A DNA stretch of 64,000 nucleotides from Acidobacteriota bacterium (lineage in GTDB: Bacteria > Acidobacteriota > Polarisedimenticolia > J045): positions 8,788 to 72,787 of the forward strand of contig JAXLQU010000020.1 of NCBI GenBank assembly GCA_046331425.1, given 5' to 3'. A program made the position numbers and the translations under genes. Below, in pieces: positions 1-44,733 of the stretch; positions within the stretch are counted from its first letter, which is position 1; each line of letters opens with the position of its first letter. A model generated the notes under the pieces. It did no database searches and was not told the DNA's origin. It saw nothing but the letters and a program-made list of their open reading frames with translations.

Positions 1-136
1 GGTGCTCGCCAAGCTCGGAAAGAAGTCCGAAGCGATCACGGTCGCCCAGCAATCGCAGAACTTGGGTAAGGGGAACGAGACCTACGCGTTCTTCAGCGCT
101 CAAATCGCCAAAGCGATCGAGGACTGGAAGAAGTAG
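1..136 (+). CDS. 3' end of a CDS truncated by the window edge (VLAKLGKKSEAITVAQQSQ...AIEDWKK*), helical TPR-like tail
   Basis: Open frame 2..136 ending in TAG, 13 bp before bshC; product not identifiable. Confidence 0.6.
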   Translation, partial: VLAKLGKKSEAITVAQQSQNLGKGNETYAFFSAQIAKAIEDWKK

Positions 137-149
137 GCGAGCCACACGG

Positions 150-1739
150 GTGTCTTCCAGTCTGTTCCAAGCGTACGTAACGGGTGAGGCTCGACGATTC
201 TTCGGGCCTCATCCGTTTTCTGTCGACGAGCGCCGCGCAGCAGTCCGCCGAGCGGTGCGTCCACTCGAGGCAGCCGTCGCGAGTGGTCTCACGACCCAGA
301 ACGCGCGATACGCATCGAGCGCCGCGCGCGAGGCACACCTCGATGCGCTCCGATCGGGCGCTGCTGCGGTCGTCACCGGACAACAAGTCGGACTGTTCCT
401 CGGACCGCTCTACACCATCTACAAGGCGGCGACCGCCGTGCGTGTCGCGCAGTCGTTGTCGCAAGAGTCGGGGCAGCCCGTGGTTCCGATCTTCTGGCTG
501 CAAACCGAAGATCACGATCTGGTCGAGATCGCGAGTTGTGCTGTCTCCCATGGCCAGGCCGAGACGCTCACGCTCTCGCTGCCTGCCGACCCGCATCAGC
601 GCGTTTCGATCGCGCATCACTCACTCCCTGCGTCGGTGATCGAGCAACTTTCCGTACTGCGCACGGCTCTCGCGCACTTGCCTCATGCCAACACTCACCT
701 CGAGCGACTCGAGCGTCACTATCGAGCGGGCGTTGGATGGGCGGATGCGTTCGCGCACGTGCTTGCGGAACTGTTCGCAGACGACGGTCTGGTACTGATC
801 GATCCGCGTGATCGCGCGTTCGGCGTAGCTGCGGCGCGGGTCCACCGAACAGCGCTGCGAAACGCCAGCCCAATCGCGGACGCCTTGGCGCAGCGTGTCT
901 TGGAACTCGAGGCGGCCGGATACGAGGCTGCGATCGCTGTGCGCCCGAAAGCGCCACTCGCGTTCTTCCATCCGCTCGGCGCCACCGGAGCACGCTATCG
1001 ACTCGAACCGGCCGCGGGCCGATTCGCCGAAGTCGGCGGCAACAGCGTGCACTCTCTCGAGGAACTGTGTGCGGCACTCGATGCCGACCCGCTGAGCTTC
1101 AGCACCAGCGCGCTGCTGAGACCGATCCTGCAGGACACGTTGCTTCCGACCGCCGCCTATGTCGGCGGCCCAGGCGAGGTTGCCTACTTCGCGCAGATGG
1201 CGCCGCTGTACGCTGCGTTCGATCTCGCCATGCCGCTGGTGGTTCCACGGGCGCGGTTTCGGGTTGTCGACGATCGCGCGCGCCGGCTGCTGGAACGCTG
1301 GAGACTCACGCCCGCCGATGCAGAACGATCGGAAGATGCATTGCTCGCGCACTGCCATGCGTTGTCGGGTAAGGCCGTCGCAACCGACTCGCTCGAGCAG
1401 GCGCTGCTCACGCCGTTTTGCACCGCACTCGAGCAACTCACGCCGCAACTCGTCAGCGCCGGTCCGGGGGTCGACGTGGCGATCGAGAAGACACGAGACA
1501 GGGTCAAGTCCGACGTGTCCAAGTTGCTCGCCAAGTACCAGAAGGCCTCGATCCATCGCGATGCGGTGATGGTCGATGAAGTGCGCCGGCTGAGGCGACT
1601 TTTGTTTCCCGAGAACAGACCTCAAGAGCGCACCTACGGACTGGCGTCGTTCGCCGCACGATTCGGAGAGCGCGCCTTCATCGACAAAGTGCTTGCGAGC
1701 GTCGTGCCGTTCGATGCTGCGATAAGGGATCTTGCATGA
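150..1739 (+). CDS. bshC: Bacillithiol biosynthesis cysteine-adding enzyme BshC
   Basis: Motifs VVTGQQVGLFLGPLYTIYKA, PIFWLQTEDHD, YVGGPGEVAYFAQ and C-terminal PQER; adjacent to bshB1/bshA. Confidence 0.93.
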   Translation: MSSSLFQAYVTGEARRFFGPHPFSVDERRAAVRRAVRPLEAAVASGLTTQNARYASSAAREAHLDALRSGAAAVVTGQQVGLFLGPLYTIYKAATAVRVAQSLSQESGQPVVPIFWLQTEDHDLVEIASCAVSHGQAETLTLSLPADPHQRVSIAHHSLPASVIEQLSVLRTALAHLPHANTHLERLERHYRAGVGWADAFAHVLAELFADDGLVLIDPRDRAFGVAAARVHRTALRNASPIADALAQRVLELEAAGYEAAIAVRPKAPLAFFHPLGATGARYRLEPAAGRFAEVGGNSVHSLEELCAALDADPLSFSTSALLRPILQDTLLPTAAYVGGPGEVAYFAQMAPLYAAFDLAMPLVVPRARFRVVDDRARRLLERWRLTPADAERSEDALLAHCHALSGKAVATDSLEQALLTPFCTALEQLTPQLVSAGPGVDVAIEKTRDRVKSDVSKLLAKYQKASIHRDAVMVDEVRRLRRLLFPENRPQERTYGLASFAARFGERAFIDKVLASVVPFDAAIRDLA

Positions 1740-1790
1740 GCGACTTCGGAGTCGGCATCACCGTGGGGCATCTTGCATGAGCGACTTCGG
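1729..1790 (+). repeat. 21-bp direct repeat ATCTTGCATGAGCGACTTCGG (1729-1749 and 1770-1790, period 41 bp) at the bshC/bshB1 junction
   Basis: Two exact copies read directly from the sequence. Confidence 0.95.
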
Positions 1791-2538
1791 TATCGACGTG
1801 CTTGCCTTTGGCGCTCACCCGGATGATGTCGAGCTGTTCTGCGGGGGCACGATGATTCGGCTCGCCGACCTCGGTCATAGCACCGGCATCGTCGATCTCA
1901 CGCGTGGCGAGCGGGCCAGTCATGGAACGCCCGAGCAGCGGGCGATCGAAACCGCCAACGCCAGCCGTGTGCTCGGCCTGCGACATCGCGAGAACGTGGA
2001 ACTTCCGGACACCGGCCTCGACCCCGCGTCACGGCCGCAACTCACCAAGGTGGTCGAGGTGTTGCGACGGCTGCGACCCGAGATCGTGCTCGTGCCGTGG
2101 ACCGAGGAACGACACCCCGATCACGCCGCCGCAGGCGAGTTGCTGCTACGCGCCGTGTACTACAGCGGTGTGCGTCAGTTCGAGTGCAGTCCGCCAGCCG
2201 ATCGATTCGTGCCGCGACAGCTTCTGCACTACCCGATGCGTTATCGCATCGCCCCCAGTTTCATCATCGACACCTCAGATGCCGCCGAGCGAAAGCTGCA
2301 GGCGATCGCCTGCTACATCAGCCAGATCACTCGCCAACCGGGCGATGATCCAACGCTCATCAGCTCGCACCGCGCCATGGCGGCGATCGAGGCGCGCGAT
2401 CGCTACTACGGCAGCATGATCGGCGTCGCTCAGGGGGAACCGCTGCGCACCGTCGCAACGCCAGGGTTGGTCGATCTGGTGAAGCAGTTCCGCGACAACC
2501 CATTCTCCGACGCGCACGCCTTCGAGCCACTGCGGTGA
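1777..2538 (+). CDS. bshB1: N-acetyl-alpha-D-glucosaminyl L-malate deacetylase BshB1 (PIG-L family)
   Basis: DVLAFGAHPDDVE, DLTRGE and HPDH motifs; lies between bshC and bshA; start placed at ATG 1777 rather than the ORF-track 1732. Confidence 0.9.
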   Translation: MSDFGIDVLAFGAHPDDVELFCGGTMIRLADLGHSTGIVDLTRGERASHGTPEQRAIETANASRVLGLRHRENVELPDTGLDPASRPQLTKVVEVLRRLRPEIVLVPWTEERHPDHAAAGELLLRAVYYSGVRQFECSPPADRFVPRQLLHYPMRYRIAPSFIIDTSDAAERKLQAIACYISQITRQPGDDPTLISSHRAMAAIEARDRYYGSMIGVAQGEPLRTVATPGLVDLVKQFRDNPFSDAHAFEPLR

Positions 2539-3713
2539 GCCGACCGCTCTCGATCGGCATCGTCTGTTTCCCGACTTTGGGGGGCAGTGGAGTCGTCGCC
2601 TCCGAGTTGGCCGCAGGACTTGCGCAGCGCGGACACGCGATTCACCTCATTGCGAGCGCGCATCCGATTCGCGAGTTCGCGCCCTCGTCCAAGGAAACGT
2701 TCCACGAAGTGCAAGTGCCAACCTATCCATTGTTGGAACACGCGCCGTACGCGCTGGCAGTTGCCTCCAAGATCGTCGACGTCGCGCAAGCTCACGGGCT
2801 CGACCTGCTGCAAGTGCATTACGCGGTGCCGCATGCCGCCAGCGCGCTGCTTGCACGGCAGGTGCTTGGCCGTGCGGCCCCAGCGCTGGTCACGTCGTTG
2901 CATGGCACCGATGTCACCAAGGTCGGCGCTCATCCCGCCTATCGTGCGGTCACGGCGTTCGCTGTCGCCGGCTCCGATGGAATTACGGTTCCCTCCGACT
3001 TTCTGCGTCGCGAGGCGCGCGCGCAACTTGGGATCGCGGACACACACGCCATCGATGTGCTGCCCAACTTCGTCGACACCGATCACTTCGTACCGGCCGC
3101 CATCCGCGATCGCTCGCAACTCGCCTCGCTGTTTGCGCCCGGCGCGCACGCGAGCAACGGCCCGTACCTCATGCATGTCTCCAACTTTCGCGAGGTCAAG
3201 CGCGTCGGCGATTTGATGGAAGTTCTCGTGCGCGTTCGGCGCCACCTGCCGGCACGACTCGTGTTGGTCGGCGACGGGCCGACGCGCGAGCTTTCAGTGA
3301 GTCGCGCCAACGCACTGGGTGTTACCGATGCCGTACGATTCCTCGGCCGACGCGCCGAATTCGTGCAATTGCTCCAACATGCCGACGGCTTCTTGCTCCC
3401 CAGCGAGTCGGAGAGCTTTGGAGTGGCTGCACTCGAAGCACTCAGCACCGGCGTTCCGGTCTTTGCGTACCACGTGGGCGGGTTGCCAGACGTGGTTGTC
3501 GATGGTGTCGGCTGTCTCGTCACCCCCTTCGATCTCGACGCCTTGGCGCAGGCGGTGATCGACGTCCTTATCAACCCTGAGCGACACGCTGCGATGGGCC
3601 GGGCCGCACGCGCACACGCTGTCGCCACATTCGGCGAGCAGCCGGCACTCGATCGATACGAACACTACTTCCGGCAGGTGATCGCCCGCCGTCAGACCGA
3701 GACGACATCATGA
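2535..3713 (+). CDS. bshA: N-acetyl-alpha-D-glucosaminyl L-malate synthase BshA (GT4)
   Basis: IGIVCFPTLGGSGVVASEL, HYAVPHA, TSLHGTDVT, HVSNFREVKR and ESFGVAALEA motifs; GTGA overlap with the bshB1 stop. Confidence 0.93.
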   Translation: MSRPLSIGIVCFPTLGGSGVVASELAAGLAQRGHAIHLIASAHPIREFAPSSKETFHEVQVPTYPLLEHAPYALAVASKIVDVAQAHGLDLLQVHYAVPHAASALLARQVLGRAAPALVTSLHGTDVTKVGAHPAYRAVTAFAVAGSDGITVPSDFLRREARAQLGIADTHAIDVLPNFVDTDHFVPAAIRDRSQLASLFAPGAHASNGPYLMHVSNFREVKRVGDLMEVLVRVRRHLPARLVLVGDGPTRELSVSRANALGVTDAVRFLGRRAEFVQLLQHADGFLLPSESESFGVAALEALSTGVPVFAYHVGGLPDVVVDGVGCLVTPFDLDALAQAVIDVLINPERHAAMGRAARAHAVATFGEQPALDRYEHYFRQVIARRQTETTS

Positions 3714-6175
3714 AGAGATTTGCCCTTGCCTTTGCAATCATGAGCGCAGCCGCCACCGGCGCGGTGGCGTTGGAGTCCGGCATGAATGCAGGAGCCTTGG
3801 CGCACGAGCTCGATCGTGTCGCAAACACCACCCGCGTGTTGTACGTCGCCGCGCATCCCGACGACGAGAACACACGACTGCTTGGGTATCTCGCCAACAA
3901 CCGCCACATGCTGGCTGCGTATCTTTCGATGACGCGTGGCGGTGGCGGGCAAAACCTGATCGGTTCGGAGCAAGGTGTTCTGCTCGACGTGATTCGCAAC
4001 GAGGAACTGCTCGCGGCGCGGCGTATCGACGGCGCGGTGCAGCGCTTCACGCGGATGCGCGACTTCGGCTATTCCAAGTCGGCCGCCGAGACCTTGGCGA
4101 TTTGGAATCATGACGAAGCGCTGGCCGACGTGGTCTGGGCGATTCGCTCGTTTCAACCCGACATCGTGATCGCCCGCTTCGATGAAGATCCGCCCAATCA
4201 CGGGCACCACACGGCATCGGCGATTCTTGCGCGCGAAGCGTTTACCGCCGCCGCGGACCCCAAGCGATTTCCCGAGCAACTCAAAAGCGGCGTGATACCT
4301 TGGCAAGCCGCTCGGCTGCTGCGCAACATTTCGTCGTGGAGCGATGAACCGCCGCCACCCGAAGCGATCGCCTTGCAGGTCGGCGACTACGACGTGCGAC
4401 TCGGTGTCAGCTACGGCGAGTTGGCGGCCCAATCGCGCAGTCAACACAAGAGCCAAGGCTTCGGTGTTTCAGGGTCGCGCTCCCCTTCTGTGGAACGTTT
4501 CCTATGGTTGGCCGGCACGAAGCCACAATCCGACATTTTTGAAGGGCTGGACTCCACCTGGGGTCGCTTCGGCGCGCCGGCCGCAGCGCTCGAGAAGGCA
4601 CTCGACGAGGCGCGCGCAACGCTCGAGCGCGATCGTCCCGAGCGCGCCCTCCCGGCTCTGCTCGCCGCGCATCGCGCCTTCGACCCGCTGCCCGACGAAC
4701 CTCGTGTGCGTGACGCCAAGCAGCGTCTCGATCGCCTGATTTGTGTTGCCGCCGGTGTGTTCGCACGCGCGACAGCCGAGAAGCCGGTTGCTGTTCCTGG
4801 CAGCGACGTGAAGCTGAGCATCGAGGTGGTGATGCGTCAGCCCGCGTCGATCACTTTGCAACGGCTGCTGCTGCCACAAGGGCCGGCGATCGATGTTGGC
4901 GCCGCGCTGGTGCCCGGCACGCCAAAGGTGCTCGAACAAAGGCTCACCATTCCAGGCGATGCCGCCATCACCACTCCGTTCTGGTTGGCGTCGACACCGC
5001 AAGCGGGGCACTACGTCGTCGCCAACCAACGACTGGTCGCCGAGCCAAGCACGCCGCCGGCCGTCGCCGTTGAACTTCAGTTCACGATCGGCGATCGACA
5101 GATCGTGCTGCACGAGCCGGTGCTTCATTCGTGGACAGACCCAGTGCAAGGCGAGCGGTTGAGACCGTTGATGATCGTGCCGCCCGCCACCGTGACACCG
5201 ACGCGCGAGGCCGTGATGTTCCCCAACGGAAGAAGCACGACGGTATCGCTACGCGTGCGCACCGGGCGCGACGATCTGAAGGGTGACTTGAGCTTGCCGA
5301 TGCCGGCAGGCTGGAAAGTCGAGCCGGCATCACAGCCGGTAACGTTGGCGAAGGTTGGCGACGAAGCGACGCTCGAGTTCACCGTCACGCCGCCTGCCGA
5401 CGCCAAGGCGGTCGCCGCTACGCCGGTCTTCACGAGCGACGGCCGCAACTGGTCGTATCGCGAAGACCGCATCGACTACCCGCACATCCCGTTTCAGCTC
5501 GTGCTTCAACCCGCCGCGCTGAGACTCGTTCCCCTCGCGCTGAACCTCCCCAAGGGGACCATCGGCTACATTCGCGGTTCGGGCGATAGCGTCGCCGACG
5601 ATCTCGCGCACGTCGGCTTGCATGTCGAGATGCTCGACGACGAGGCGCTGCGAAGCGGCGATCTCGGTCGCTTTGCCGCGATCGTTGTCGGCATTCGCGC
5701 CTACAACACGCGCGACGTCGTGCGCGCTGCGCATGCGCGCCTGATGAAGTATGTCGAGGCCGGTGGCACGGTCGTGGTGCAGTACAACACGAACAATCGG
5801 CTTTCCTCGTTGGACGGATCACTCGGTCCGTTTCCGCTCGAGATCGGGCGCGATCGCGTCACCGACGAGAAGGCGATCATGACCACCTTGATACCCGATC
5901 ACCCTGTGTTGAACAGGCCCAACAAGATCTCCACCGCCGACTTCGAGGGCTGGGTTCAAGAGCGCGGCATCTACTTCGCCCTCAAGTGGGATCCGCGCTA
6001 CAAGCCGCTGTTCTCGGCAGCCGATCCCGACGAGAAGCCGACGCAGGGAAGCACGCTGATCGCGGAGTACGGCAAGGGGCGATACGTCTACACGGGGCTG
6101 GCGTTCTTCCGGCAGTTGCCTGCCGGCGTGCCCGGTGCCTATCGCCTGTTCGTCAACTTGATTGCCGGACAATAG
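3710..6175 (+). CDS. Exported LmbE/PIG-L family deacetylase with NEW3-like Ig domain and C-terminal class I GATase-like domain
   Basis: Signal peptide MKRFALAFAIMSAAATGAVA; AHPDDE, DFGYSK and HGHH metal motifs; C-terminal GLAFFRQLPAGVPGAYRLFVNL; ATGA overlap with bshA. Confidence 0.85.
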   Translation: MKRFALAFAIMSAAATGAVALESGMNAGALAHELDRVANTTRVLYVAAHPDDENTRLLGYLANNRHMLAAYLSMTRGGGGQNLIGSEQGVLLDVIRNEELLAARRIDGAVQRFTRMRDFGYSKSAAETLAIWNHDEALADVVWAIRSFQPDIVIARFDEDPPNHGHHTASAILAREAFTAAADPKRFPEQLKSGVIPWQAARLLRNISSWSDEPPPPEAIALQVGDYDVRLGVSYGELAAQSRSQHKSQGFGVSGSRSPSVERFLWLAGTKPQSDIFEGLDSTWGRFGAPAAALEKALDEARATLERDRPERALPALLAAHRAFDPLPDEPRVRDAKQRLDRLICVAAGVFARATAEKPVAVPGSDVKLSIEVVMRQPASITLQRLLLPQGPAIDVGAALVPGTPKVLEQRLTIPGDAAITTPFWLASTPQAGHYVVANQRLVAEPSTPPAVAVELQFTIGDRQIVLHEPVLHSWTDPVQGERLRPLMIVPPATVTPTREAVMFPNGRSTTVSLRVRTGRDDLKGDLSLPMPAGWKVEPASQPVTLAKVGDEATLEFTVTPPADAKAVAATPVFTSDGRNWSYREDRIDYPHIPFQLVLQPAALRLVPLALNLPKGTIGYIRGSGDSVADDLAHVGLHVEMLDDEALRSGDLGRFAAIVVGIRAYNTRDVVRAAHARLMKYVEAGGTVVVQYNTNNRLSSLDGSLGPFPLEIGRDRVTDEKAIMTTLIPDHPVLNRPNKISTADFEGWVQERGIYFALKWDPRYKPLFSAADPDEKPTQGSTLIAEYGKGRYVYTGLAFFRQLPAGVPGAYRLFVNLIAGQ

Positions 6176-29983: not shown

Positions 29984-31650
29984 ATGACCGCACCCTCGAG
30001 CCCTCGCGACAACGGCGGCCAGCGCACGAGCACGGCAGCCGCGCTCGTCCTGCTGTGGCTTGCCGTGATCGTGCTGCCACTCCCAGTGCGCGAGGTCATG
30101 CCGCCCGACGAATCGCGCTTCGCACACCAGGCCGAGGTAATGCACACGAGCGGCGACTGGATCGTCCCGCGAATCGGCGACGTGCCGAATGCGGACAAGC
30201 CGCCAGGGTTGTTTTGGTCGGTGAATCTGGTGTCGCTCGTGACAGGCCACGTGACGGAAACGACGGCGCGGGTTCCGTCCGCGCTGGCTGCACTGATGGT
30301 TATGTTTCTGACGGTACGACTCGGCAGGCGGCTGTGGGGCGACGCGACACTCGGGCTAGGCGCTGCCGCGATGCTCGTCACCGGCGTCGAGTTCTCGCAG
30401 AAGGGGCAGTGGTGCTCATGCGACATGCTGCTGACGGCGTTTTCGCTCGGTGCGTCGACGCTCTGGCGCGAGGCAGTCTTCGAACGCGAGCGCGGCGGGC
30501 ACCTGATGATCGCGGCGGGCTGGCTGTGCGCAGCGATCGCGACGCTAACGAAGGGACCGCTCGGGTTGCTGTGGCCGTTGTGGTGGGTGATCGCCGAAGC
30601 GGCGGCTCGGCGCCGCTGGAAACCGACGCTCGCACTGCTCGTACCTAGCGGGCCGGTCTTGTATCTGTTGCTCGTCTTCGGTTGGCTCACAGCGTTCAAG
30701 GCGGGCGCCGGCGAAACTCTCGCTCACGAAGCGCTGTTCACGCAAACCGTCACGCGATACCTGAACTCGTGGAACTCATTCCAGCCCCCCTACTTTTTCT
30801 TGATTCAGACGCCCGGCGACTTCTTTCCGTGGTCGTTGTTCTTTCCTGCGGCTGCCGTCGCGTGGTGGCGTTTGCGCCGTGACGCCGATGCAACGACCGG
30901 TGTCGATCGTGTCGCATGGCGCGCGAGCCTTGTTTTCTTGGGGATTGCGCTGGTCTTTTTCTCGCTCTCGCCGGGCAAGCGCGGTGTGTATCTGCTGCCG
31001 GCATTCCCGATGCTTGCGCTGTGCACGGCGCGCGGATTTCTGTCGATCGGCGGACGCTGGCGTCGAGTTCCGCTCAGACTGCTGGCCTGTGTTGGGATCG
31101 TCGTCGGGCTGGTGATCCCCCTGGTGGTTGCGGTGATTCGGCCCCGCGTCGCACTCGATTGGGGAGAGCGTGTCGGTTTCGGTTGGGTCGCGGCGCTGGT
31201 CGCGTGCGGAGCCTCGCTCTCGATCGGAGCGCTGTTCGCGCTGCGCCGTCACGACTCCGCACCTCGCGCTCTCGCCTCGGTGGTCGCCGGTATGGCCGTC
31301 TGCCTCTCCATTCTTGGGACGCTCGGCGGTGCGGCGTGGAGTCGCTATCAGGACGGCTCAGGATTCGGCACGGTGGTCGCGACGATCGTCCCCGCGCGGA
31401 GCGATTGGTGATGGGACGGGGCAAGTTCGAATTGGTGCTGTTCTACTCGAACCGGCGCGGCACCGAGGTGCAGAACGAAGAGGCACTGGTCGACGAGCTA
31501 CGGTCGGGGCGTGCGCGCTATGTCGTGTTGAGTCGCGAGTTTTATCAGCAGGTGAGGGGTCGACCCGAGGTAGCCCAATTGACGCTGCTCGCCGATCGTT
31601 GGGTGGGCAATACCAACCTCCTGCTGCTCGGGCCGCCCTCCGCAGCAGGT
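29984..31650 (+). pseudogene. ArnT/PMT-like GT39 glycosyltransferase, frameshifted near 31395 (true lesion or sequencing error)
   Basis: PPDESRF, DKPPG and TKGPLG motifs; stop at 31411, but the C-terminal domain continues in another frame (ERLVMGRGKFELVLFYSNR...LLLLG). Confidence 0.75.
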
Positions 31651-35855: not shown

Positions 35856-37349
35856 CTAGAACTTGATCCGCCACTCCGCGCGTACCCCGGCGAGACTGTC
35901 CTCGATCCCACGGTCGGCGTACATGCCATCGAACCGCACGATCATGTTGTGTGAGAGCTTCATCTGATAGCGGATTCCCAATCCGTACTGATCGTCCTTC
36001 GCGATCCGCTCGGTGATATCTCCGCTCGTTTGCAACGCGGCTAGCTCCACAACCAACTGACGATCGAGGCCAAACAGATACTCCACTCCAAACGCGCCAC
36101 CCCACGTGTTGTTGCCCGACGACTCCATCGACGCCAGGCCGGTAAGCGCGTTTCCTTCAAACAGCAAACCGGTGTTCTTCAAGATGCCGCCTGCCCCTGG
36201 ATCGCGCGCCAACGACTGCGGCGAATCGATGCCGACGAACAGATTGAGGTACGGCACCAGCGTGAGCGGCTTGTGGGTGATGAACGAGTTTTCGATCAGA
36301 AGCAGCGCACCATCGGCGGTGCGTACACCGGCGGTCGGTTCTTCCTGCCCGAAGTTGCCGATCACCCGCACGCTGTTGGACAGCCAATTGCCGTACCGGC
36401 GCGTGAATGCCAATCCGACGTTGTGGTAACTGCGATCGGGCCCCGACTTGACATCCTCGGTGTAGCCGTAGTCGATCTCCCAATACCCTTGGTTGGCTTC
36501 TGCGAAGATCGCGACACCAGCCACGCGTGGGTCCTGGTTCTTCGCAATGGTCGCGCGGCTGCTGACGCGATCCAGACCGACGAAGAACGTGATGTCGGCG
36601 TTGCTGATGTCGAGCTTGCGGCTGTTGCGCGCTGGAATCGTAAAGGCCAAGCCGGTGAACGCGTCTTCGAGCCACACGCCGTTTTGCAGCAACAGCGGCA
36701 TGAAGCCGACCGCAAAGGGCAGGTCGAACTTGCTGGGCTTGTCGCGCCAACCTTGGAGCATCGCGCCGAGCTCTCCCTCGAAGAACAGTGCATCGAGGTT
36801 GCCGTCGAAGCTGCGCGTAAAGTCGGCGTTGCTGTTTTGATAGTCGTACGACAGGAAGCGTCCTTCCTTGTCGAGGGGGCGTGCGAAGGCGTGAATCCGC
36901 TCGGTGGAAGTGAAACGCCAATCCATGTCGAGATTCAGACGGGCCGCAAGGCGCGAGGAATCTTTGTCGCCGACCTGGTTCCAGCCGGTTCCGAGCTGAA
37001 AGTCGCCGTGCGCGATGAACTGTTGATTCATTGGGTTCTTGCGGCCGAAGAGGGTCGAGGTGGCCGGCTTCAACGGACCTGCCGCGTACATTTCACGGCC
37101 TAGCTCGAGCAACGGGCGCTGCGTGAGGTTGGCGTATTTGCCGCCGTAGATCTGAAGTTGGGCCGAGGCGTCGTAGCTTTTGTCTACGTAGCTGGGATCG
37201 GGCCGGAAATTCTTGGGATCGTTGTCAGCGGGTTTCGCTTCGGGCGACGCCGCGGGTGCTGCCGGCTTTTGTTCTTCAGCAGCCCCAAGAGTTCCGGCGG
37301 CCATGATCGCCATGGCTCCCAACAAGATCGGCAGACGGAGCGCGTGCAT
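35856..37349 (-). CDS. Putative outer-membrane beta-barrel protein co-transcribed with the multiheme cytochrome
   Basis: Signal peptide; amphipathic strands; C-terminal GVRAEWRIKF BAM-type signal; 1 bp from the cytochrome stop. Confidence 0.7.
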   Translation of the reverse strand: MHALRLPILLGAMAIMAAGTLGAAEEQKPAAPAASPEAKPADNDPKNFRPDPSYVDKSYDASAQLQIYGGKYANLTQRPLLELGREMYAAGPLKPATSTLFGRKNPMNQQFIAHGDFQLGTGWNQVGDKDSSRLAARLNLDMDWRFTSTERIHAFARPLDKEGRFLSYDYQNSNADFTRSFDGNLDALFFEGELGAMLQGWRDKPSKFDLPFAVGFMPLLLQNGVWLEDAFTGLAFTIPARNSRKLDISNADITFFVGLDRVSSRATIAKNQDPRVAGVAIFAEANQGYWEIDYGYTEDVKSGPDRSYHNVGLAFTRRYGNWLSNSVRVIGNFGQEEPTAGVRTADGALLLIENSFITHKPLTLVPYLNLFVGIDSPQSLARDPGAGGILKNTGLLFEGNALTGLASMESSGNNTWGGAFGVEYLFGLDRQLVVELAALQTSGDITERIAKDDQYGLGIRYQMKLSHNMIVRFDGMYADRGIEDSLAGVRAEWRIKF

Positions 37350-37350
37350 C

Positions 37351-39080
37351 TCACTTCACCTCGAACGTAACGGTGCGTGGGTGGACATCGAGCATCCATT
37401 CGTTCATCGATTGCTGCATGTCGACGGTCGCGCCGACGAACTGCATGAAGTAGATCGGTTCGGCGCGGCTGCGCAGCCGGACCGCCAGCTTGTAGGTGCC
37501 CGGTTGCGCGAGAAGCTCGCCGGGGATCTTGTACTCGGCCTCGCGTTTGCCGAGCGGCGGAATGCTGCGTTGCTCCATGCGAATGAACGGCGGGTGATTC
37601 ATCACCGAGTTGGGTGTACCGGCCGGCCGAATGAACGGCAACTGATCGACATCGAGGTTGACCGGCAGATACATCTCGCGGTCGGTGCCCTTGACGTTGG
37701 TGGTGATGAACTTGGTCTGCAAGTTGAACAGTTGATCATCGTGCGCCAGCTTGCCGGCGCGCACATCGAGCGAGTGCAGGTCGGCGAAGTCGCCGTTGCT
37801 GTCGAGGTAGCCCGATTCCCCACGTTCTTACCAGACGGGTCGACCAATGCGACGTTCAGCCACAGTTCCGGCTGCGCTCCCAGGCTTCCCGACGGCAGGT
37901 CGTGGCCGTCGTCGATATTGTTGACGACGTAGCTGAACTCCAATGGCTTCCCGGTGCGGGGCGGGCGCTCGAAGAACGGTCCATCGATGCGCGAACCGGC
38001 TTCCATAACCTGACGGCGCTGCTCGAACTTCTTCTTCAGCTTGGCGAGATTCTCGTCGACGATGCCGCGTGCCGTCTCGCGGTCGTAGTCGTCTTGCCAT
38101 TCCTTGGGGAACGTCACGCTGAGTTGCTTCTTGTAGACCTTGTCCTCGAACTCGGGAGCACCCCATCCGGCGCGGTAGTCGAACTTCAACCACGCTTCGA
38201 TCGGGAACTGCTCGGCCTTGGGGTTTTGCGGAAAGATCCCGGGGTGCGCGATCGGATAGCCGGGCCCGTAGAACGCGTGATTGTGATGCTCGCGTTTTTC
38301 GCTGACCTTCTTGCCGCTCACGATGGCGACAGCCCCCACCTCGAAGCCGGAGACAACACCAGGCTGCTTGCCCATGTGACATTGCTGGCAGGTGATGCCT
38401 TGCTTGAACGCGGGACTATCGCGGTATTGGTCCCACACCACCTCCAACTTGATGCCCGGGTGGACCGCCACCTGATGACATGACAAGCAGAAGTCGGAAG
38501 TGGAGAGCGGCTCGAACTTGATGCCGGCGACATGAATGTCCATGCCGGGGCCTTTGTCGCCGGGCAATGGTTTGACCTTGTAGAAGTCTTTCTTGGAGAT
38601 CACCTCGGCCACGCCATCACCCCCGAAGTTGCCGTAGACGGGATCGTGAATGTCGCCGGGCTCGATGCGCCGTTCGCCGTTGACGTGCCCATACTCTTCA
38701 CGCACGCGATGGCACGTGATGCAGGTGACTCCTTCGCGTGCCACCTTGGTCCGCTTCCAAATCGGTAGCTCGCGCGGCTCGCCCAACGTGGTCCCGACGC
38801 TGGCGTGGCAGCGCACACAAAAACTCCCGATCGTGCCGTTGGCCAGATCGTTGATGCGTTGCTCGAATTTGTGGAACATCGGAGAGACCGAAGCGTAGGC
38901 GTGATTGGACGAGGCCCACTCGTCGTAGATCTGCTGATGACACTTGGCGCATTCAGTGGCGCTGGGGTATTTGCTGGTCGCGTAGACCGCGGCGTGCGGG
39001 TCATCGCCGGCCCAGGCGGTAAGCGCGTTGAGCGCCGTGAACAAAACAGCCATCCCCGCAATCGTTGACGTCAATCTCAT
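37351..39080 (-). pseudogene. Exported pentaheme cytochrome c (c554/c552-like), split by a 1-bp frameshift near 37822
   Basis: Signal peptide; five CxxCH (CAKCH, CVRCH, CITCH, CLSCH, CQQCH); frame switches after PSGKNV to (W)ESGYLDSNGD...TFEVK. Confidence 0.8.
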
Positions 39081-39200
39081 CAGCCCCTCGTGCGCATGGT
39101 CCGGCCTAGGATAAGCGCAACGTCGTTCAAAGATGGTGGGCGTTCGCCGCTTTTCCAAGGCGAAGTCGACTCGGCGATCCAAGCCGGGCGAGCCCTGGGC

Positions 39201-40028
39201 TCAAAGGTCGATCTTCAGGCCTTCTGAAGCCACCTCGACCTGAGGAAACTCGCGCCGGGCTTCGCTCAGAATGGCATCGAGCTGGTCATCGGTTCGATCG
39301 GGGTCGTGATGAAACAACACCAGCTTGTCGACAGCAGCGCGCTTGGCCAACGCCACCGCGTCGCGCCATGAGCTATGCCCCCAGCCGTGGTGAGCGGCCG
39401 CGTCTTGGGGCGTCCACTGAGCGTCGGCAATCAATGTCGAGGCGCCGTGAGCAAACATTGCGAGCCGTTCGTCGATGGCGCTATCACCGCATTCGTGGTC
39501 GGTCGCAATCACGACCGCGCGCCCCGCATGCTCGAGGCGATACGCGTGCGCCCCCTGGGGGTGATTCAGCGGACACGACTTCACGTGCAGAGGGCCTAAC
39601 TCGACGGTGCTCCCGTCCAGGTCGTGATAGTGGCAGCGTGACTGCACGGCATTCAGCGCGACCGGAAAGAACGGGGCTTGAAGGGCGCGCTCCAAGATCG
39701 ATCGCAGCCCTTCCGCTTCCGATGGAAAACCGTGTAGCTCAAAGGTTCCCGCCGGATCATGCAGCGGCGCAAACAGCGGAAAACCCAGCAGGTGATCCCA
39801 GTGGTAGTGCGTGAAGAACAGATGCCATTTCGAGGCTCCCCCACCCTCGGCACGCCACACCGCCTCGAGCGATTTGAGCCCGCTGCCGGCGTCGATCACC
39901 AACCGCTCGCCCTTGCCCAGCGCGAGATCGAGGCACGTGGTGTTGCCGCCGTAGCGGATGAATGACGGTCCCGCGACGGGCATCGATCCACGCGCGCCAC
40001 GAACCGTCAAGCTGAAGGGCGTCGACAT
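39201..40028 (-). CDS. MBL-fold metallohydrolase (putative cyclic-nucleotide phosphodiesterase/RNase Z-like)
   Basis: GARGSMP...YGGNTTC, IDAGSG, THYHWDH, LNHPQG, GWGHS, LFHHDPDR. Confidence 0.88.
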   Translation of the reverse strand: MSTPFSLTVRGARGSMPVAGPSFIRYGGNTTCLDLALGKGERLVIDAGSGLKSLEAVWRAEGGGASKWHLFFTHYHWDHLLGFPLFAPLHDPAGTFELHGFPSEAEGLRSILERALQAPFFPVALNAVQSRCHYHDLDGSTVELGPLHVKSCPLNHPQGAHAYRLEHAGRAVVIATDHECGDSAIDERLAMFAHGASTLIADAQWTPQDAAAHHGWGHSSWRDAVALAKRAAVDKLVLFHHDPDRTDDQLDAILSEARREFPQVEVASEGLKIDL

Positions 40029-40138
40029 CGCCGGGCATTATCGACGACTCCGGCTCGCCGAAACCTCACACGAAGCGACGAAAAGCAGATCGATCCGGCT
40101 CTAGAATGCCGAGGTTCCAAAGGGTAGGGACCGGAGGT

Positions 40139-41767
40139 ATGAGTCAGATGAGCGTATTGGGTCGCTGGACTCTGGCTGTCGCGCTGTCGGTCGCGGTGCT
40201 TGCACCGACCGGTCGCGCCGCAGAACTGCCTGCGAACTTGGCGGGCGACTCAGAGGCAGCCGGGTTTGCCGACCTGTTCTTCACGCAGGCGCTATTGAAG
40301 TTGTCGGGCGGCGATGTTGCCGGTGCACTGGCATTGGTCGATCGCGCGGTTGCCACCGTGCCGGCCGATGCGACGTACATCTACTTCCGCGGCGTCTGCT
40401 TGACGCGCCTGTCGCGCACCGATGAGGCGATCGAGGCATTTCGCAAGGCTTTGCCGCCGGCCAAGTGCAGCGTGCCCGAGGCGACCGTGCGACTCGATTT
40501 GGGCAGCGCGCTGCTAACCAAGGGCGATCTGGCCAACGCCGAGATCGAGTTGGCCAAAGCGGTGGACCTGGCACCCGAAAATGGTCGTACGCGATTCACT
40601 CATGGACTTGCCTTGCTGCGGGCCGAGAAGTACGACGAAGGGTTGAAGGAGATCGATCGCGCCACCGGGCTCGACGCCACGCTCGAGCCGGAAGGGGCGT
40701 TCTACAAAGGGATCGCAGCGTACCGCGCCGGTAACTTGGACGAGGCCAAGGAACAGTTCAATCGCGCGCAGGCACTCAACACCGAAGCCGGGGTCAACGC
40801 CGCTGCGTGGTTGAACGCACTGAAAGAGGCGGCCACGTTCTCGCAACCGCCCGCTTGGGAAGCGCGACTGTCGCTCGGTTTCGATTGGGATGACAACCCC
40901 GCGCAACTCACGAACGATTTGATTGCGATCCAACAGTTTCTGGGTGATGACGTCAAGGACACGCGCAGTTCGGCGCAGCTACGCGGCAGTTGGTTGCCTG
41001 TGCGCGATCGCGGTGGCTACACGCTGCAACTCACCGCGCTTGGGTACGCCAATCGTCACGCCGACTTCGATAACCTCGATTCCGACGGGTGGGGCGCGTT
41101 CGTTGGGCTGGCCCGCGGTGTGAATCCGCTAGGATTCATGAACGGCCCGTTGGGGTACGTAAGGGTGCCGACGCGCGACGGCGGATTCGGCTGGTTGCTG
41201 CAAGCCGGTGCCAATCGCTTCAACCTCGACGGTGAGAAGCTGCGCAGCGACCTGTCCGGCGACATCAGCCTGTTCCTCAACTCAGCCTCGATCGGCGTCA
41301 CACAATTGGACCTGCAGTATGAAGATCGCACCTTCGAACCGGTGGCAATCGAGGGACTCTCGGGCGGAGCGTTCACGGCAAGGCTCTCTCAACAGATCTG
41401 GCTCGGCGCCAACCCCTCGCGCTTTATTCGCGCGTCGATTGCCTGGACCGATCACAACCCCGACGACAGCGGCCTGAAGCGAACCGAACGCCAAATCGCC
41501 GCGGAAATGGCCTGGCCGCTCGGAAAACGCTGGACGCTGTTTGCGTACGGCGCGCGCACGCGCACCCACTTCGACAGCTTCGAAGGGTTGGAACGGATCG
41601 ATCGCCGCTTCGAGTTGAAGGGCTCGGTCGCGTTCGCGATCACACGCTGGATGTACCTGTCGGCGCGCTACGGTACGACGCAGTTCACGGTCGACCCCAG
41701 CGTGCTGGGCGCCAATCTCGATTTCGATCGCAAGGTCGGATCGTTCAACGTCAACTTTCACTGGTAG
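40139..41767 (+). CDS. TPR-containing outer-membrane beta-barrel protein (Slam/DUF560-like architecture)
   Basis: GGAGG SD; signal peptide; N-terminal TPRs; C-terminal strands ending FNVNFHW. Confidence 0.75.
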   Translation: MSQMSVLGRWTLAVALSVAVLAPTGRAAELPANLAGDSEAAGFADLFFTQALLKLSGGDVAGALALVDRAVATVPADATYIYFRGVCLTRLSRTDEAIEAFRKALPPAKCSVPEATVRLDLGSALLTKGDLANAEIELAKAVDLAPENGRTRFTHGLALLRAEKYDEGLKEIDRATGLDATLEPEGAFYKGIAAYRAGNLDEAKEQFNRAQALNTEAGVNAAAWLNALKEAATFSQPPAWEARLSLGFDWDDNPAQLTNDLIAIQQFLGDDVKDTRSSAQLRGSWLPVRDRGGYTLQLTALGYANRHADFDNLDSDGWGAFVGLARGVNPLGFMNGPLGYVRVPTRDGGFGWLLQAGANRFNLDGEKLRSDLSGDISLFLNSASIGVTQLDLQYEDRTFEPVAIEGLSGGAFTARLSQQIWLGANPSRFIRASIAWTDHNPDDSGLKRTERQIAAEMAWPLGKRWTLFAYGARTRTHFDSFEGLERIDRRFELKGSVAFAITRWMYLSARYGTTQFTVDPSVLGANLDFDRKVGSFNVNFHW

Positions 41768-41778
41768 GCGGAGACACC

Positions 41779-42627
41779 ATGCGCCGCTTGATTGTTTTGA
41801 TTGTCGTACTGACCACAGGACTTGCTTGGGCTACCGAGGTGGGTCGCTTTGCGTTCGTGCAGAAGGAGGTGAACTCCTTCAAGCCGAGCGTCACCGAACC
41901 GGTGCAAGCCAAGGCTGGTGATGCGGTGGTTGTCGGCGAACGTGAGGTCACGGGCGCCGCGTCGGGGGCGAAGCTCCTTTTCGGCGAGGGCGGCGTGGTC
42001 TCGCTCGGGGCCAACACCTCGTTCGCGGTCTCGCAGTTGGCTGTCGATCAAGCCACCGGCAAGAACACCAGCTCGCTGTCGGTGTTGTTTGGCAAAGCGC
42101 GTGTGTTTCTTTCGCGCTTTTGGTCGGATCGCCCCGAGGTCAAGATCGATCAACCGACGGCGGTGGTTGGCATCAAGGGGACCGAGGTGGGACTCGAACA
42201 GTTCCGCGATGGACGCTTGACGATCACCTGCTACGGCGGCACGGCAGGCGTTCTAACGAAGGCAACGCCCCCGCAGACGTTCGAGTTGCGCGAAGGGATG
42301 CAGCTCAAGCTCGACGCGTCGGGGAAACCGGTCGGCCCACCGTCGACACTCTCGGCGGCCGAACTCGATGCGCTGCGCAATAGCGTCGACATCATCGCCG
42401 ACGGTGCCGGCGGCGGCGTCTCGGGTGGCCAACGCGCGATGGCGGCGCCATCGCCCAGCGACATCGCGTCGCAGTTCAGCGGACTGGGGAGCACAGCGGG
42501 TCGCGCGGCGGTGAACACATCGTCGAACTCGGCGAACGGTGGCGCGTGGTCCGATCCCGCCGGCACGTTGCTGCCGCCTCCCGTCGACTCGGGTTGCAAC
42601 TGCGATCAAGGCGGGCGAGGCAACTGA
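41779..42627 (+). CDS. Exported FecR-domain protein
   Basis: Signal peptide; TGAASGAKLLFGEGGVVSLGANT and QPTAVVGIKGT FecR-type motifs; low-complexity tail. Confidence 0.85.
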   Translation: MRRLIVLIVVLTTGLAWATEVGRFAFVQKEVNSFKPSVTEPVQAKAGDAVVVGEREVTGAASGAKLLFGEGGVVSLGANTSFAVSQLAVDQATGKNTSSLSVLFGKARVFLSRFWSDRPEVKIDQPTAVVGIKGTEVGLEQFRDGRLTITCYGGTAGVLTKATPPQTFELREGMQLKLDASGKPVGPPSTLSAAELDALRNSVDIIADGAGGGVSGGQRAMAAPSPSDIASQFSGLGSTAGRAAVNTSSNSANGGAWSDPAGTLLPPPVDSGCNCDQGGRGN

Positions 42628-42654
42628 CGCGGTGAGCCGCCCCGCGGGCTGTCG

Positions 42655-44733
42655 TTGAAACGCTCTCGCTTGTGGATCGGACCGACGCTCGGCCTGTTGG
42701 TCGCGCTCTTGGTTTTGCCCTTGATGCGCACCACGCTGTTCGCCGGCTTCGAGAGCAAGACGGTCGACGCGCGCATGCGCTGGAGCCGCGGTCAGCAAGC
42801 CGACGACAGAATCGTGGTGGTGGCGGTCGATCCGGAATCGATCAATCAACTCGGTCGATGGCCGTGGCCGCGCTCCACGGTCGCCGAATTGGTTCGACGC
42901 ATTCACCAGGGCGGCGCCAGCGTGATCGCGCTGGACATGATCTTCAGCGAACCGACGCGCGGTGACAGCACCGAGGACGATGCACTCGCCGCGGCGATCC
43001 GCGACGCGGGGAATGTTGTTCCTGGCTTTTTCCTTCGCCTTCAAGCCGATCTCACGAAGCCACCGGTTCTCCCCTCGCCGATCGAGAGCGCGATCCAACC
43101 GCAAGCGGGGTTTCCCGGCATTCGCCGCTACGGAGGGATCGAGACGCAGTTGCCGGCAATCACCGAAGCGGCGCCGCAAGGTGGCCACTTCGTCGCGCGC
43201 GAGGATTCCGACGGCACCATCCGTCACTACCCGCTGGTGCTGTCGTACGACGACGCGCTGTATCCGGCGCTGGCCTTGCGCGCGGTGCAACGTCAACTCG
43301 GCAATCCGCCGATCGCGGTGACACCGGTTCAATCTGTTGTGCCGCAACTGACCTTGGGTGAGAAGAGCATCCCGATCGACGAGAGCGGCGAGTTGTGGAT
43401 CAACTGGATCGCACCGTGGAAGGCGTTTAAGTACGTCCCTGCGGCTGCGGTGCTCAACGGCACCGCCGACCCATCTGCACTTCGCGACAAGCTCGTGTTC
43501 GTGGGTTTCACCGAAACCGGCCTGGCCGACTCGATCACCTCCCCGTGGGATACGGCGATCCCCGGGGTCGAAGTGCATGCGATGGTGGCCGATAACCTGC
43601 TTAGGCATCGATTCGTGCGCGATGGAGCGCTCGAGTTGGCCTGGTCGATGGTCGCAACGCTGTTGCTTGGTGCACTGTGCGGTATGTCGGCAACCTGGAC
43701 GCGCCGGCCATTGATGGGCGCACTGCTGGGTGCGCTGGTGTTGTCAGGCTATCTCGTGTTGGCACAGCAGGCGTTTCAGTTTGGCGCTCGACACTTGCAA
43801 CTATTCTTGCCGCTGATCGCCGGGGCCGCAGCATTCACCGCCAGCACCGTCTGGCGCAACGTGTTTGCCGAGGCGCGCGCCAAACAGATTCGCCGCGTCT
43901 TTTCACAGTACGTCTCCCCTGCAATCGTCGATGAGATGTTGAAAGACCCGGACGCCGTGCGTTTGGGCGGAGAGCGGCGTGAGTTGACGGTGCTGTTTGC
44001 CGATATTCGTGGCTTCACGTCATTGGCAGAGACCATGCCGCCGGAGCAAACCGTCTCGCTGCTGCAGGAATACCTCACACCGATGACGCAGCTCATCCAG
44101 GCGCAGGGCGGAACGCTCGACAAGTACATGGGTGACGGGATCATGGCGTTCTTCGGCGCACCGGTGGCGCAGACCGATCATGCGCCGCGCGCCGCCGCGG
44201 CGGCGCTGGCGATGCGCGCGGCGCTCGATGACTTGAACAAGGGCTGGGACGCGCGCGGACTGCCGGAGATTCGTTGCGGGATCGGACTCAACAGCGGGCC
44301 GATGGCGGTCGGCAACATCGGATCGTCGATGATCTTCGACTACACGGTGATTGGCGACAATGTCAACTTGGGCTCGCGCATCGAAGGGCTGACACGCACG
44401 TACGGTGTGGATGTGATCGTCAGCGCAACGACCGCCGAGCTGCTGTCGGAGAGCCTGGTGATGCGTGAGCTCGATGCGGTTCGCGTCAAAGGGCGGCGAG
44501 AGCCGGTGCAGATTTTCGAATTGACCCCTCCCGGCGAGCTTTCGCAGCAATTCCGGGCGGCGTACGCAGAAGGGCTGCGGCTATATCGGGCGCGTCGATT
44601 TGCTGCCGCACGGGTCGAGTTCGAAGCGGCGCGTGGTGAGCGGCCCGCCGACCTCCCCTGCCAGCTCTTCATCAAACGATGTCGATCGTATGAACTCGAC
44701 CCGCCCGACAGCGACTGGGACACCGTCTCGTAG
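42655..44733 (+). CDS. CHASE2-domain class III adenylate cyclase
   Basis: LGRWPWPR and PGVEVHA (CHASE2); three TM; LFADIRGFT, DKYMGDG, YTVIGDNVNLGSRIEG (K/T pair indicates ATP). Confidence 0.92.
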   Translation: MKRSRLWIGPTLGLLVALLVLPLMRTTLFAGFESKTVDARMRWSRGQQADDRIVVVAVDPESINQLGRWPWPRSTVAELVRRIHQGGASVIALDMIFSEPTRGDSTEDDALAAAIRDAGNVVPGFFLRLQADLTKPPVLPSPIESAIQPQAGFPGIRRYGGIETQLPAITEAAPQGGHFVAREDSDGTIRHYPLVLSYDDALYPALALRAVQRQLGNPPIAVTPVQSVVPQLTLGEKSIPIDESGELWINWIAPWKAFKYVPAAAVLNGTADPSALRDKLVFVGFTETGLADSITSPWDTAIPGVEVHAMVADNLLRHRFVRDGALELAWSMVATLLLGALCGMSATWTRRPLMGALLGALVLSGYLVLAQQAFQFGARHLQLFLPLIAGAAAFTASTVWRNVFAEARAKQIRRVFSQYVSPAIVDEMLKDPDAVRLGGERRELTVLFADIRGFTSLAETMPPEQTVSLLQEYLTPMTQLIQAQGGTLDKYMGDGIMAFFGAPVAQTDHAPRAAAAALAMRAALDDLNKGWDARGLPEIRCGIGLNSGPMAVGNIGSSMIFDYTVIGDNVNLGSRIEGLTRTYGVDVIVSATTAELLSESLVMRELDAVRVKGRREPVQIFELTPPGELSQQFRAAYAEGLRLYRARRFAAARVEFEAARGERPADLPCQLFIKRCRSYELDPPDSDWDTVS

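Follow-up and report, generated by a model that had tools for sequence, protein, structure and literature searches.

What does a multiheme cytochrome do when its gene is joined to that of an outer-membrane barrel? The question is raised by a gene pair of an Acidobacteriota bacterium (GenBank assembly GCA_046331425.1), which we analysed within a window of 64,000 nucleotides, the window being the whole stretch of contig JAXLQU010000020.1 under study. An earlier note, made from the letters of the window, had proposed that the pair might be a new porin-cytochrome conduit and had named a periplasmic redox enzyme with a substrate channel as the alternative.

The gene pair and its identity

Both genes are read from the minus strand. 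The upstream gene, ptdA (39080..37351, starting at ATG 39080), encodes a c-type cytochrome with five hemes that is exported and, counting a base missing from the assembly, 576 aa long, and the downstream gene, ptdB (37349..35856), encodes an exported outer-membrane protein of 497 aa that is modelled as an 18-strand beta-barrel. The junction is TGA-G-ATG, with ptdB starting one base past the ptdA stop at 37351, and the observation that a barrel-like protein begins 1 bp downstream of the cytochrome was correct.

As assembled, ptdA is split into two open reading frames (39182..37602 and 37764..37351) by the loss of a base near 37820. In a DNA alignment a 98%-identical relative (L001) reads GTGTGGGAA, whereas the window has GTG-GGGAA at the same place. 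The one-base deletion site was assigned to 37815..37825 of the minus strand, where the window has GTG-GGG and the relatives have GTGTGGG, by use of this alignment and of short-read contigs from three public runs (X1, X2 and X3), one of which represents the likely source sample and two of which come from independent studies. The contigs of all three runs have an extra A after plus-strand position 37820. As these contigs carry the missing base, the frame break is an assembly error, and both a ptdA pseudogene and a programmed frameshift were ruled out. Intact ptdA orthologues of 573-604 aa are present in L001 and in two further loci (L002 and L003).

The pairing of the two genes is far beyond chance. 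ptdA lay directly upstream of ptdB, in the same orientation, in all 77 loci that had enough upstream DNA, and these loci represent at least seven phyla; a second locus set gave adjacency in 75 of its 80 loci. Conservation of the pair as a unit thus extends across phyla. In about three-quarters of the loci ptdAB is surrounded by genes for an NAD(P)H-binding flavoprotein and for Fe-S proteins, and in the source genome and several others it stands without an adjacent CDEFG set. One alphaproteobacterial chromosome shows the full arrangement, which runs D (four hemes), E (cNMP-binding plus 4Fe-4S), F (membrane), G (ten hemes), A, B and C (FNR plus 2Fe-2S), giving a cluster total of about 19 c-hemes and an outer-membrane barrel. 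The Ptd cluster has neither a lipoprotein gene nor one for a surface cytochrome, and no surface cytochrome gene lies near ptdAB here. A relative of PtdA is present in at least 580 genomes at species level, the habitats being oceans, lakes, groundwater, soil and sludge, and most hosts of the system are water-column and sludge heterotrophs. Cultured organisms that carry it include Kordiimonadales bacterium IMCC3096 (L143), Marinobacter sp. CHS3-4 (L079) and Minwuia thermotolerans.

The ptdABCDEFG cluster was named in a 2023-24 preprint by Elbon, Stewart and Glass (bioRxiv 10.1101/2023.11.21.568154), which found it in Alpha- and Gammaproteobacteria, Nitrospirales and Planctomycetes of saline habitats and reported that ptdAB is highly transcribed in a marine oxygen-deficient zone. 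The leading idea of that preprint for PtdAB was a porin-cytochrome conduit. Our literature search found no peer-reviewed functional study of Ptd. The window PtdA is 60-70% identical to PtdA proteins embedded in full clusters, including that of L146, a metagenome-assembled genome from an ocean region also sampled by the preprint. Given this identity, the gene-by-gene match of architecture, the A-B adjacency and the genome's own ptdC-F genes (below), the pair is PtdA and PtdB of the ptdABCDEFG system. It is therefore an already-named pair and not a new one, as the earlier note had thought possible. ptdA and ptdB are the invariant core of this multiheme system.

Properties of PtdA and PtdB

PtdA has a Sec-type signal peptide (MRLTSTIAGMAVLFTALNALTAWA) and five CxxCH motifs, at residues 44-48, 88-92, 120-124, 198-202 and 231-235, with no cysteine elsewhere. 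By computed motif coordinates the heme-binding region, from the first to the fifth motif, occupies 38951..38376 of the minus strand, and it is followed by about 340 residues lacking a heme motif that extend to the stop at 37351. Both the exported five-motif cytochrome and its large non-heme C-terminal part, as first described from the letters, are thus real features of the protein. None of the ten Cys and five His of the motifs varies among 41 homologues, identity is 57-78% across at least seven phyla and many His and Met residues outside the motifs are also invariant. The protein begins with a helical domain that binds the five hemes, continues with a helical insert and ends in an Ig-like beta-sandwich, and the C-terminal half is beta-rich in the model. 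The overall pLDDT of that model is 69; the heme domain was poorly predicted because no hemes were included, and a nearly invariant loop (residues ~445-506) is also of low confidence.

Pfam and NCBIfam searches with PtdA gave generic multiheme matches only. The protein scored 28 bits against TIGR03508, the DmsE/MtrA family (cut-off 192), and 21-25 bits against NF040886, the MccSep family (cut-off 250). The best solved relative, and the only clear one, was the pentaheme c552 of Thermochromatium tepidum (5ze8), which was found by sequence profile (E 8.9e-11) and was the sole significant match in the fold search (E 1.2e-6). An MccSep-type polysulfide reductase was ruled out by the missing Cys/Sec, and a NrfA pentaheme nitrite reductase was ruled out by the presence of five CxxCH motifs with no CxxCK and no match to Cytochrom_C552 (PF02335). 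No in-frame TGA was found in PtdA.

PtdB has a signal peptide, no cysteine and a C-terminus (...WRIKF) that ends in Phe. Its AlphaFold model (mean pLDDT 81) is a beta-barrel of about 18 strands formed by residues ~106-497, and the N-terminal ~100 aa are conserved and of low confidence. By use of Foldseek and VIA-align, the top structural matches were C. jejuni MOMP, OccK/OccD/OccAB, AlgE and chitoporin, with Z scores of 24.6-28.0, whereas the MtrB chain (6r2q_B) ranked 42nd with a Z of 11.9 and an rmsd of 8.6. PtdB is therefore predicted to be a channel of the outer membrane with 18 strands, in the structural class of MOMP, OprD and AlgE, and the suspicion that the partner of the cytochrome is a barrel was borne out. 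The protein falls in no family of Pfam (at E 0.1) or NCBIfam, a sequence search of the PDB gave no match and a protein atlas search returned only unnamed clusters and a remote Alginate_exp lead. There are at least 1288 PtdB homologues, none of them named; identity across phyla is 43-55% with about 80 invariant positions, many within the barrel region. Without cysteine PtdB has no heme site, and a Cyc2-type fused cytochrome-porin was ruled out by the lack of Cys on the barrel polypeptide. The initial impression that neither protein resembles the decaheme conduits also held, there being no MtrB_PioB match in addition to the PtdA score of 28 bits against 192.

Accessory genes and the cyclase neighborhood

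The source genome encodes ptdC, D, E and F, in that order, on the minus strand at C20:2-4931, which is about 40 kb from ptdAB on the same contig and strand. The matches ranged from E 1e-39 to 1e-187 and had the expected Pfam domains, and a stand-alone ptdAB devoid of accessory genes was thereby ruled out. PtdC has an N-terminal membrane helix followed by FAD_binding_6, NAD_binding_1 and Fer2 domains, and PtdE has cNMP-binding domains and two predicted 4Fe-4S clusters. PtdG, the membrane-anchored decaheme cytochrome, was not found with one protein query or with a 14-sequence profile in this genome, which is 96.7% complete and in which ptdF is cut by the contig end where ptdG would follow. Hence, the electron chain is incomplete as assembled.

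A gene for an MBL-fold hydrolase (39201..40028, minus strand; Pfam Lactamase_B_2) lies 120 nt upstream of ptdA and may be co-transcribed with it. Its NCBIfam matches, to RNase Z and to "cyclic nucleotide-degrading phosphodiesterase", were partial and far under the cut-offs, weak evidence that makes the protein a candidate cyclic-nucleotide phosphodiesterase. Homologues of the hydrolase gene are found directly before ptdD in two other loci (L151 and L169). Divergent from it on the plus strand is an operon (40106..44733) that encodes, by Pfam domains, TPR, FecR and CHASE2-adenylate/guanylate-cyclase proteins. The 4.4-Mb genome has no second match to PF00211 or to CHASE2 besides this cyclase, and CHASE2-cyclase homologues lie less than 10 kb from ptdA in 8 of 80 loci. 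The operon could possibly regulate the Ptd chain through the cNMP-binding PtdE. Scans for promoters, terminators and FNR/CRP boxes upstream of ptdA and of the MBL gene found nothing. A more ambitious proposal, which we regard as rather unlikely as a whole, would make PtdAB the terminal module of a cyclic-nucleotide-gated, NAD(P)H-driven electron export chain of a new kind. A soluble substrate supplied through the private 18-strand channel PtdB would be turned over by PtdA, a new multiheme enzyme of the periplasm. In this lineage the switch would be encoded next to the pair: the CHASE2 cyclase would make the nucleotide that the MBL hydrolase removes and by which PtdE gates the electron path.

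Function of PtdAB and comparison with known systems

The most straightforward reading is that PtdA is a soluble periplasmic multiheme redox protein that is fed by NAD(P)H and works beside a dedicated solute channel, PtdB, rather than a partner of a heme sheath. We consider this reading probable, though by no means assured, and an Mtr-type wire through the membrane less likely. A channel is favored over a sheath by the Z scores of 25-28 against 18-strand channels as compared with 11.9 against MtrB, and by the absence of Cys from PtdB. The strong identity of PtdA across phyla, its invariant His and Met residues, its kinship to 5ze8 and its MccSep-like build argue that it is enzyme-like, and the FAD_binding_6, NAD_binding_1 and Fer2 domains behind the membrane helix of PtdC argue for the NAD(P)H feed. 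Electrons would pass from cytoplasmic NAD(P)H to PtdC (membrane-anchored, with FAD and 2Fe-2S) and PtdE (two 4Fe-4S clusters plus cNMP-binding), would cross the inner membrane by way of PtdF and would then reach the c-hemes of PtdG and PtdD. PtdA would be the end point, reducing or otherwise turning over a small soluble substrate, and PtdB would admit the substrate from outside or release the product. The direction of electron flow in this scheme is assumed. Given its five plain CxxCH motifs and the absence of the catalytic Cys/Sec of MccSep, PtdA could instead be a pure electron carrier.

The main competitor is a true conduit, in which PtdA, or part of it, plugs PtdB and electrons reach other cells or Fe(III)/Mn(IV) minerals outside the cell. 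The supply of about 19 c-hemes and a barrel in one cluster and the invariant cytochrome-barrel pairing, as in MtrAB and PioAB, are in its favor, and the PtdB N-terminus and the PtdA loop, both of low confidence, are what would be expected of docking segments. Moreover, Cyc2 accommodates one heme domain in a small barrel, and PtdA might reach into the 18-strand lumen of PtdB with a hairpin or an extended loop. However, the barrel is 18-stranded, with MtrB far down the list of its matches, and PtdA is a ~60-kDa two-domain globular protein far below the DmsE/MtrA cut-off rather than a slender MtrA-like rod. The missing lipoprotein or surface cytochrome and the water-column and sludge life of most hosts also argue against a conduit, which we judge unlikely. 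Of the conduit first proposed for this locus, the exported cytochrome with its barrel remains, whereas the barrel class, that of an 18-strand channel and not of the 26-strand MtrB sheath, does not agree. The alternative then offered, in which a substrate channel serves a redox enzyme of the periplasm, fits the evidence better.

Two further readings were considered. PtdA might run in reverse, oxidizing a reduced solute (e.g., sulfur or nitrogen species or Fe(II)) that enters via PtdB and passing the electrons inward, first to carriers in the periplasm and then into the respiratory chain. Genomes that have ptdAB without an adjacent CDEFG set favor this, since PtdA must then be able to use other partners, as do the sulfur-metabolism role suggested for the T. 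tepidum homologue and the transcription of sulfide-oxidation genes by the Ptd hosts of the preprint (bioRxiv 10.1101/2023.11.21.568154). We find reversal improbable, however, as the flavoprotein and Fe-S proteins of most loci form a layout suited to outward electrons, and c552 is described as low-potential, which suits a reductase. Least probable is that the adjacency reflects assembly and not catalysis, PtdB being a general porin or an export or anchoring factor for PtdA with no substrate traffic. The N-terminal ~100 residues of PtdB are conserved and of low model confidence, and in Geobacter the amounts of other heme and membrane proteins changed on loss of ExtI, both of which are consistent with such a role. 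Against it, the identity and invariant positions of PtdB are unusually strict for a general porin, and the pairing with ptdA is kept where the other cluster genes lie at a different site.

The pair matters beyond this locus because Ptd is among the most widespread multiheme systems without a known function. Whether Ptd exports electrons to minerals or reduces soluble compounds bears on how frequent extracellular electron transfer is among ordinary heterotrophs, and also on how iron, nitrogen or sulfur is cycled where oxygen is low. The copy described here extends Ptd to Acidobacteriota and to freshwater engineered habitats. In it A and B have stayed together though the rest of the cluster has moved off, which points to A-B as the functional core; its barrel class argues against an Mtr-like sheath, and its cyclase/hydrolase neighborhood suggests a control route for PtdE.

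MtrCAB, PioAB and MtoAB resemble the present pair in that a multiheme cytochrome gene adjoins an outer-membrane barrel gene and further multiheme cytochromes are encoded in the cluster. In those systems a decaheme MtrA rod is sheathed by a 26-strand barrel of the MtrB type, whereas here there are 18 strands and a pentaheme protein with an Ig-like domain, neither the MtrB_PioB nor the DmsE/MtrA family is matched and a surface cytochrome is absent. The published Ptd shares with this copy a PtdA with five motifs and a beta-rich C-terminal half, a PtdB porin gene directly after ptdA, accessory proteins of types C (FAD/NAD(P)), D (tetraheme), E (cNMP, two 4Fe-4S) and F (membrane), and the homology of PtdA to T. 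tepidum c552. It differs in that the host here is an acidobacterium of activated sludge or wastewater, the cluster is split with AB in the window and CDEF ~40 kb off, and the neighboring genes encode the MBL hydrolase and the one class III cyclase of the genome.

T. tepidum c552 (PDB 5ZE8) likewise carries its five hemes in the N-terminal domain, and its C-terminal domain is Ig-like and includes an H-x-x-P-[ST]-G region. However, it has 435 residues to the 576 of PtdA, with ~16% identity and a TM of ~0.5; PtdA has an extra helical insert of ~75 residues and the long conserved loop, and no porin partner has been reported for c552. MccSep (ExtKL) of Geobacter sulfurreducens is built of a periplasmic pentaheme "cap" and an Ig-like "stem" and is encoded in one cluster with the porin-like outer-membrane ExtI and further multiheme cytochromes. 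Its sequence similarity to PtdA is marginal (E 0.04), its catalysis needs a Cys heme ligand and Sec/Cys whereas the Cys residues of PtdA are confined to the heme motifs, ExtI is described as weakly similar to phosphate-selective porins whereas PtdB is predicted to belong to the MOMP/OprD/AlgE class, and the Ext cluster has a bc-type membrane module in place of an NAD(P)H flavoprotein. MccSep is a proven periplasmic polysulfide reductase encoded beside a porin, and it serves as a precedent for a reductase that works beside a channel.

The ptdA and ptdB genes

The ptdA gene (minus strand, start ATG at 39080 and stop at 37351) has a GAGGGG Shine-Dalgarno sequence 5 nt 5' of the ATG. Its product carries a signal peptide of the Sec type, and all of its cysteines belong to five CxxCH motifs between residues 44 and 235. 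The ptdB gene (37349..35856, minus strand) encodes a 497-residue protein that has a signal peptide, lacks cysteine and ends in ...WRIKF. The junction is TGA-G-ATG, the ptdB start lying one base past the ptdA stop, which together with the five motifs confirmed the arrangement described in an earlier note: an exported five-CxxCH cytochrome followed 1 bp later by a barrel-like protein.

As assembled, the ptdA frame is lost after ...GKNV near 37820 and resumes in a different frame up to 37351. Two related acidobacterial contigs, 98% identical (L001) and 85-91% identical (L002), encode an unbroken PtdA (573-576 residues) containing ...GKNVWESGYLD..., and DNA alignment showed one T to be absent from the ptdA of the window (GTG-GGG versus GTGTGGG). 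The window stretch was detected in activated-sludge and wastewater metagenomes of 11 studies, and contigs from the probable source run and from two runs of other studies contain an additional base after plus-strand position 37820. The frame break is an assembly error and, as contigs of three runs have the extra base, ptdA should be read as intact (576 residues). A second 1-bp frameshift, also seen in the earlier note, lies at about 31380-31420 in the first GT39 gene and, given the ptdA case, may likewise be an assembly error. Before an indel in this assembly is taken as the mark of a pseudogene, the reads should be checked.

Distribution and gene order of the ptd cluster

Profiles run against a set in which a single genome stood for each species found the barrel in 372 genomes and the cytochrome in at least 580. 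The two genes are conserved together: of the initial 80 loci, 77 include enough upstream DNA to judge, and every one of these has the cytochrome gene immediately ahead of the barrel gene in the same orientation; in a second set with 10-kb flanks the barrel directly follows the cytochrome in 75 of 80. Hosts include Acidobacteriota, Nitrospirota, Planctomycetota, Verrucomicrobiota, Gemmatimonadota and Alpha-, Beta- and Gammaproteobacteria from sludge, soil, groundwater, lakes and sea water. Within Acidobacteriota the barrel is patchy: about four of 200 sampled further genomes had a clear orthologue, and three same-family and 14 same-class genomes had none. As this distribution is patchy and the acidobacterial orthologues (47-48% identical) are no closer than the proteobacterial ones (50-55%), the sequences suggest that the barrel spread laterally.

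The system is not new, as the earlier note had thought possible, since Elbon, Stewart and Glass (bioRxiv 10.1101/2023.11.21.568154) had named the cluster ptdABCDEFG. [quoted passage not shown] What is new here is a Ptd member whose layout is split and whose phylum and habitat are both new; the kind is named but uncharacterized, and its function is a worthwhile question.

Clustering of neighbors gave two more genes at most ptdAB loci: upstream, a membrane-anchored cytochrome of about ten hemes with a conserved Cys-rich cytoplasmic N-terminus and, downstream, a membrane-anchored FNR-type flavoprotein with a C-terminal 2Fe-2S domain. The seven-gene architecture was confirmed in one alphaproteobacterial chromosome and across a set of 80 loci, among which C was found in 53, D in 57, E in 59, F in 58 and G in 58. 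Gene orders were DEFG-AB-C, AB-CDEFG or divergent GFED/ABC, only A-B being invariant. In PtdG of several loci (L009, L010, L015, L018, L024 and others) about nine conserved cysteines lie in a cytoplasmic N-terminal segment before the single membrane helix (alignment, YERP..RCGR..W.KPC..GP...CGG..EC.P...GDR.ECRR...GG.C..GP.PDG.C...RPPC.P), a possible metal or Fe-S site on the PtdC/PtdE side.

In the window no C-G genes adjoin ptdAB. Genes ptdC, ptdD, ptdE and ptdF lie at positions 2-4931 of the same contig, on the same minus strand. They precede the window by 4-9 kb, some 40 kb separate them from ptdB, and the genes still run A, B ... C, D, E, F. The ptdF gene is truncated at the contig end, beyond which a ptdG could still lie, and protein and profile queries for PtdG gave no match in the assembly. 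Just upstream of ptdC is a 671-residue ORF (contig positions 4984-6999, minus strand) having no Pfam match and a C-terminal HNH-like His/Cys motif, possibly a nuclease of a mobile element located where the two ptd halves are separated. Synteny with L001 and L002 extends over the ptdAB flanks (MBL hydrolase, TPR/FecR/cyclase operon and GT39/AsnB genes). A Nitrospirota ptdAB pair (L003:758-3865, minus strand) likewise lacks adjacent C-G genes; it is flanked by a divergent 1035-residue multiheme cytochrome, and downstream are a trypsin-like protease with TPR repeats, a Ser/Thr kinase and a TPR/CsgG-like protein.

Cyclase and MBL hydrolase neighbors

As a lead, the cyclase and MBL neighbors of ptdAB may belong to the Ptd system. 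A single protein of this 4.4-Mb, 96.7% complete genome matches class III cyclases (PF00211), and a single one matches CHASE2: in both cases the adenylate/guanylate cyclase encoded at 42655..44733, 3.6 kb from ptdA. Five proteins of the genome, PtdE among them, have cNMP-binding domains. Of 80 loci, 8 have a CHASE2-cyclase homologue no more than 10 kb from ptdA; several of the 8 come from related alphaproteobacteria and so do not count as independent cases. The MBL hydrolase gene (39201..40028) is 120 nt upstream of ptdA, and homologues immediately precede ptdD at two other loci (L151 and L169); its protein matched a cNMP phosphodiesterase model weakly (57 bits versus a cut-off of 400). TTGAT-N4-ATCAA-like sites with up to two mismatches number 27 in the whole window versus a shuffle mean of 12 (none of 100 shuffles reached 27), an excess that may be compositional; the window scan found none upstream of ptdA or the MBL gene.

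PtdAB compared with known systems

PtdB has no family in Pfam or NCBIfam, and its homologues (at least 1288, 43-86% identity) all lack names. That it is a barrel, as the earlier note had supposed, was borne out by a confident AlphaFold model (pLDDT 81, alignment of 46 sequences) in which about 100 low-confidence but sequence-conserved N-terminal residues precede about 18 strands. The top matches were 18-strand channels both by Foldseek and in an exhaustive search with VIA-align: C. jejuni MOMP (Z 28.0), OpdQ (27.2), OccAB3 (27.1), AlgE (24.7) and chitoporin (24.6).

The analysis shows two exported proteins in an invariant pairing, five heme sites and a predicted 18-strand barrel. The interpretation in the earlier note holds in part; we prefer a solute channel plus periplasmic redox protein, the alternative raised there, over an Mtr-like porin-cytochrome conduit. 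The barrel class and size match solute channels, PtdB lacks a heme site, PtdA is globular with two domains rather than rod-like, and no surface cytochrome is encoded. The conduit is less likely: MtrB of the Mtr complex ranks only 42 among the PtdB fold matches (Z 11.9, rmsd 8.6), although conserved, poorly modeled segments (PtdB residues 1-105, PtdA residues ~445-506) could dock or insert. The accessory genes encode NAD(P)H/FAD, Fe-S and c-heme domains. With a solute channel, electrons from NAD(P)H would enter PtdC/PtdE and pass to PtdF and then via PtdG/PtdD to PtdA, with PtdB bringing in or taking out a small solute.

PtdA has at least 3497 homologues across phyla (57-78% identity), the sole clear solved relative being the T. 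tepidum pentaheme c552 (5ZE8; phmmer E 3e-6; profile E 8.9e-11 covering all five hemes), which was also the sole significant Foldseek match (E 1.2e-6). The literature groups this cytochrome with Geobacter ExtKL and GSU2801 as the "PHC" family, built of a five-heme helical cap and an Ig-like stem. Later work identified ExtKL as MccSep, a polysulfide reductase that depends for catalysis on a Cys heme ligand and a selenocysteine; PtdA has neither. MccSep/ExtI, in which a protein of PtdA's build is a periplasmic reductase beside a porin, is a precedent that also favors the solute-channel reading.
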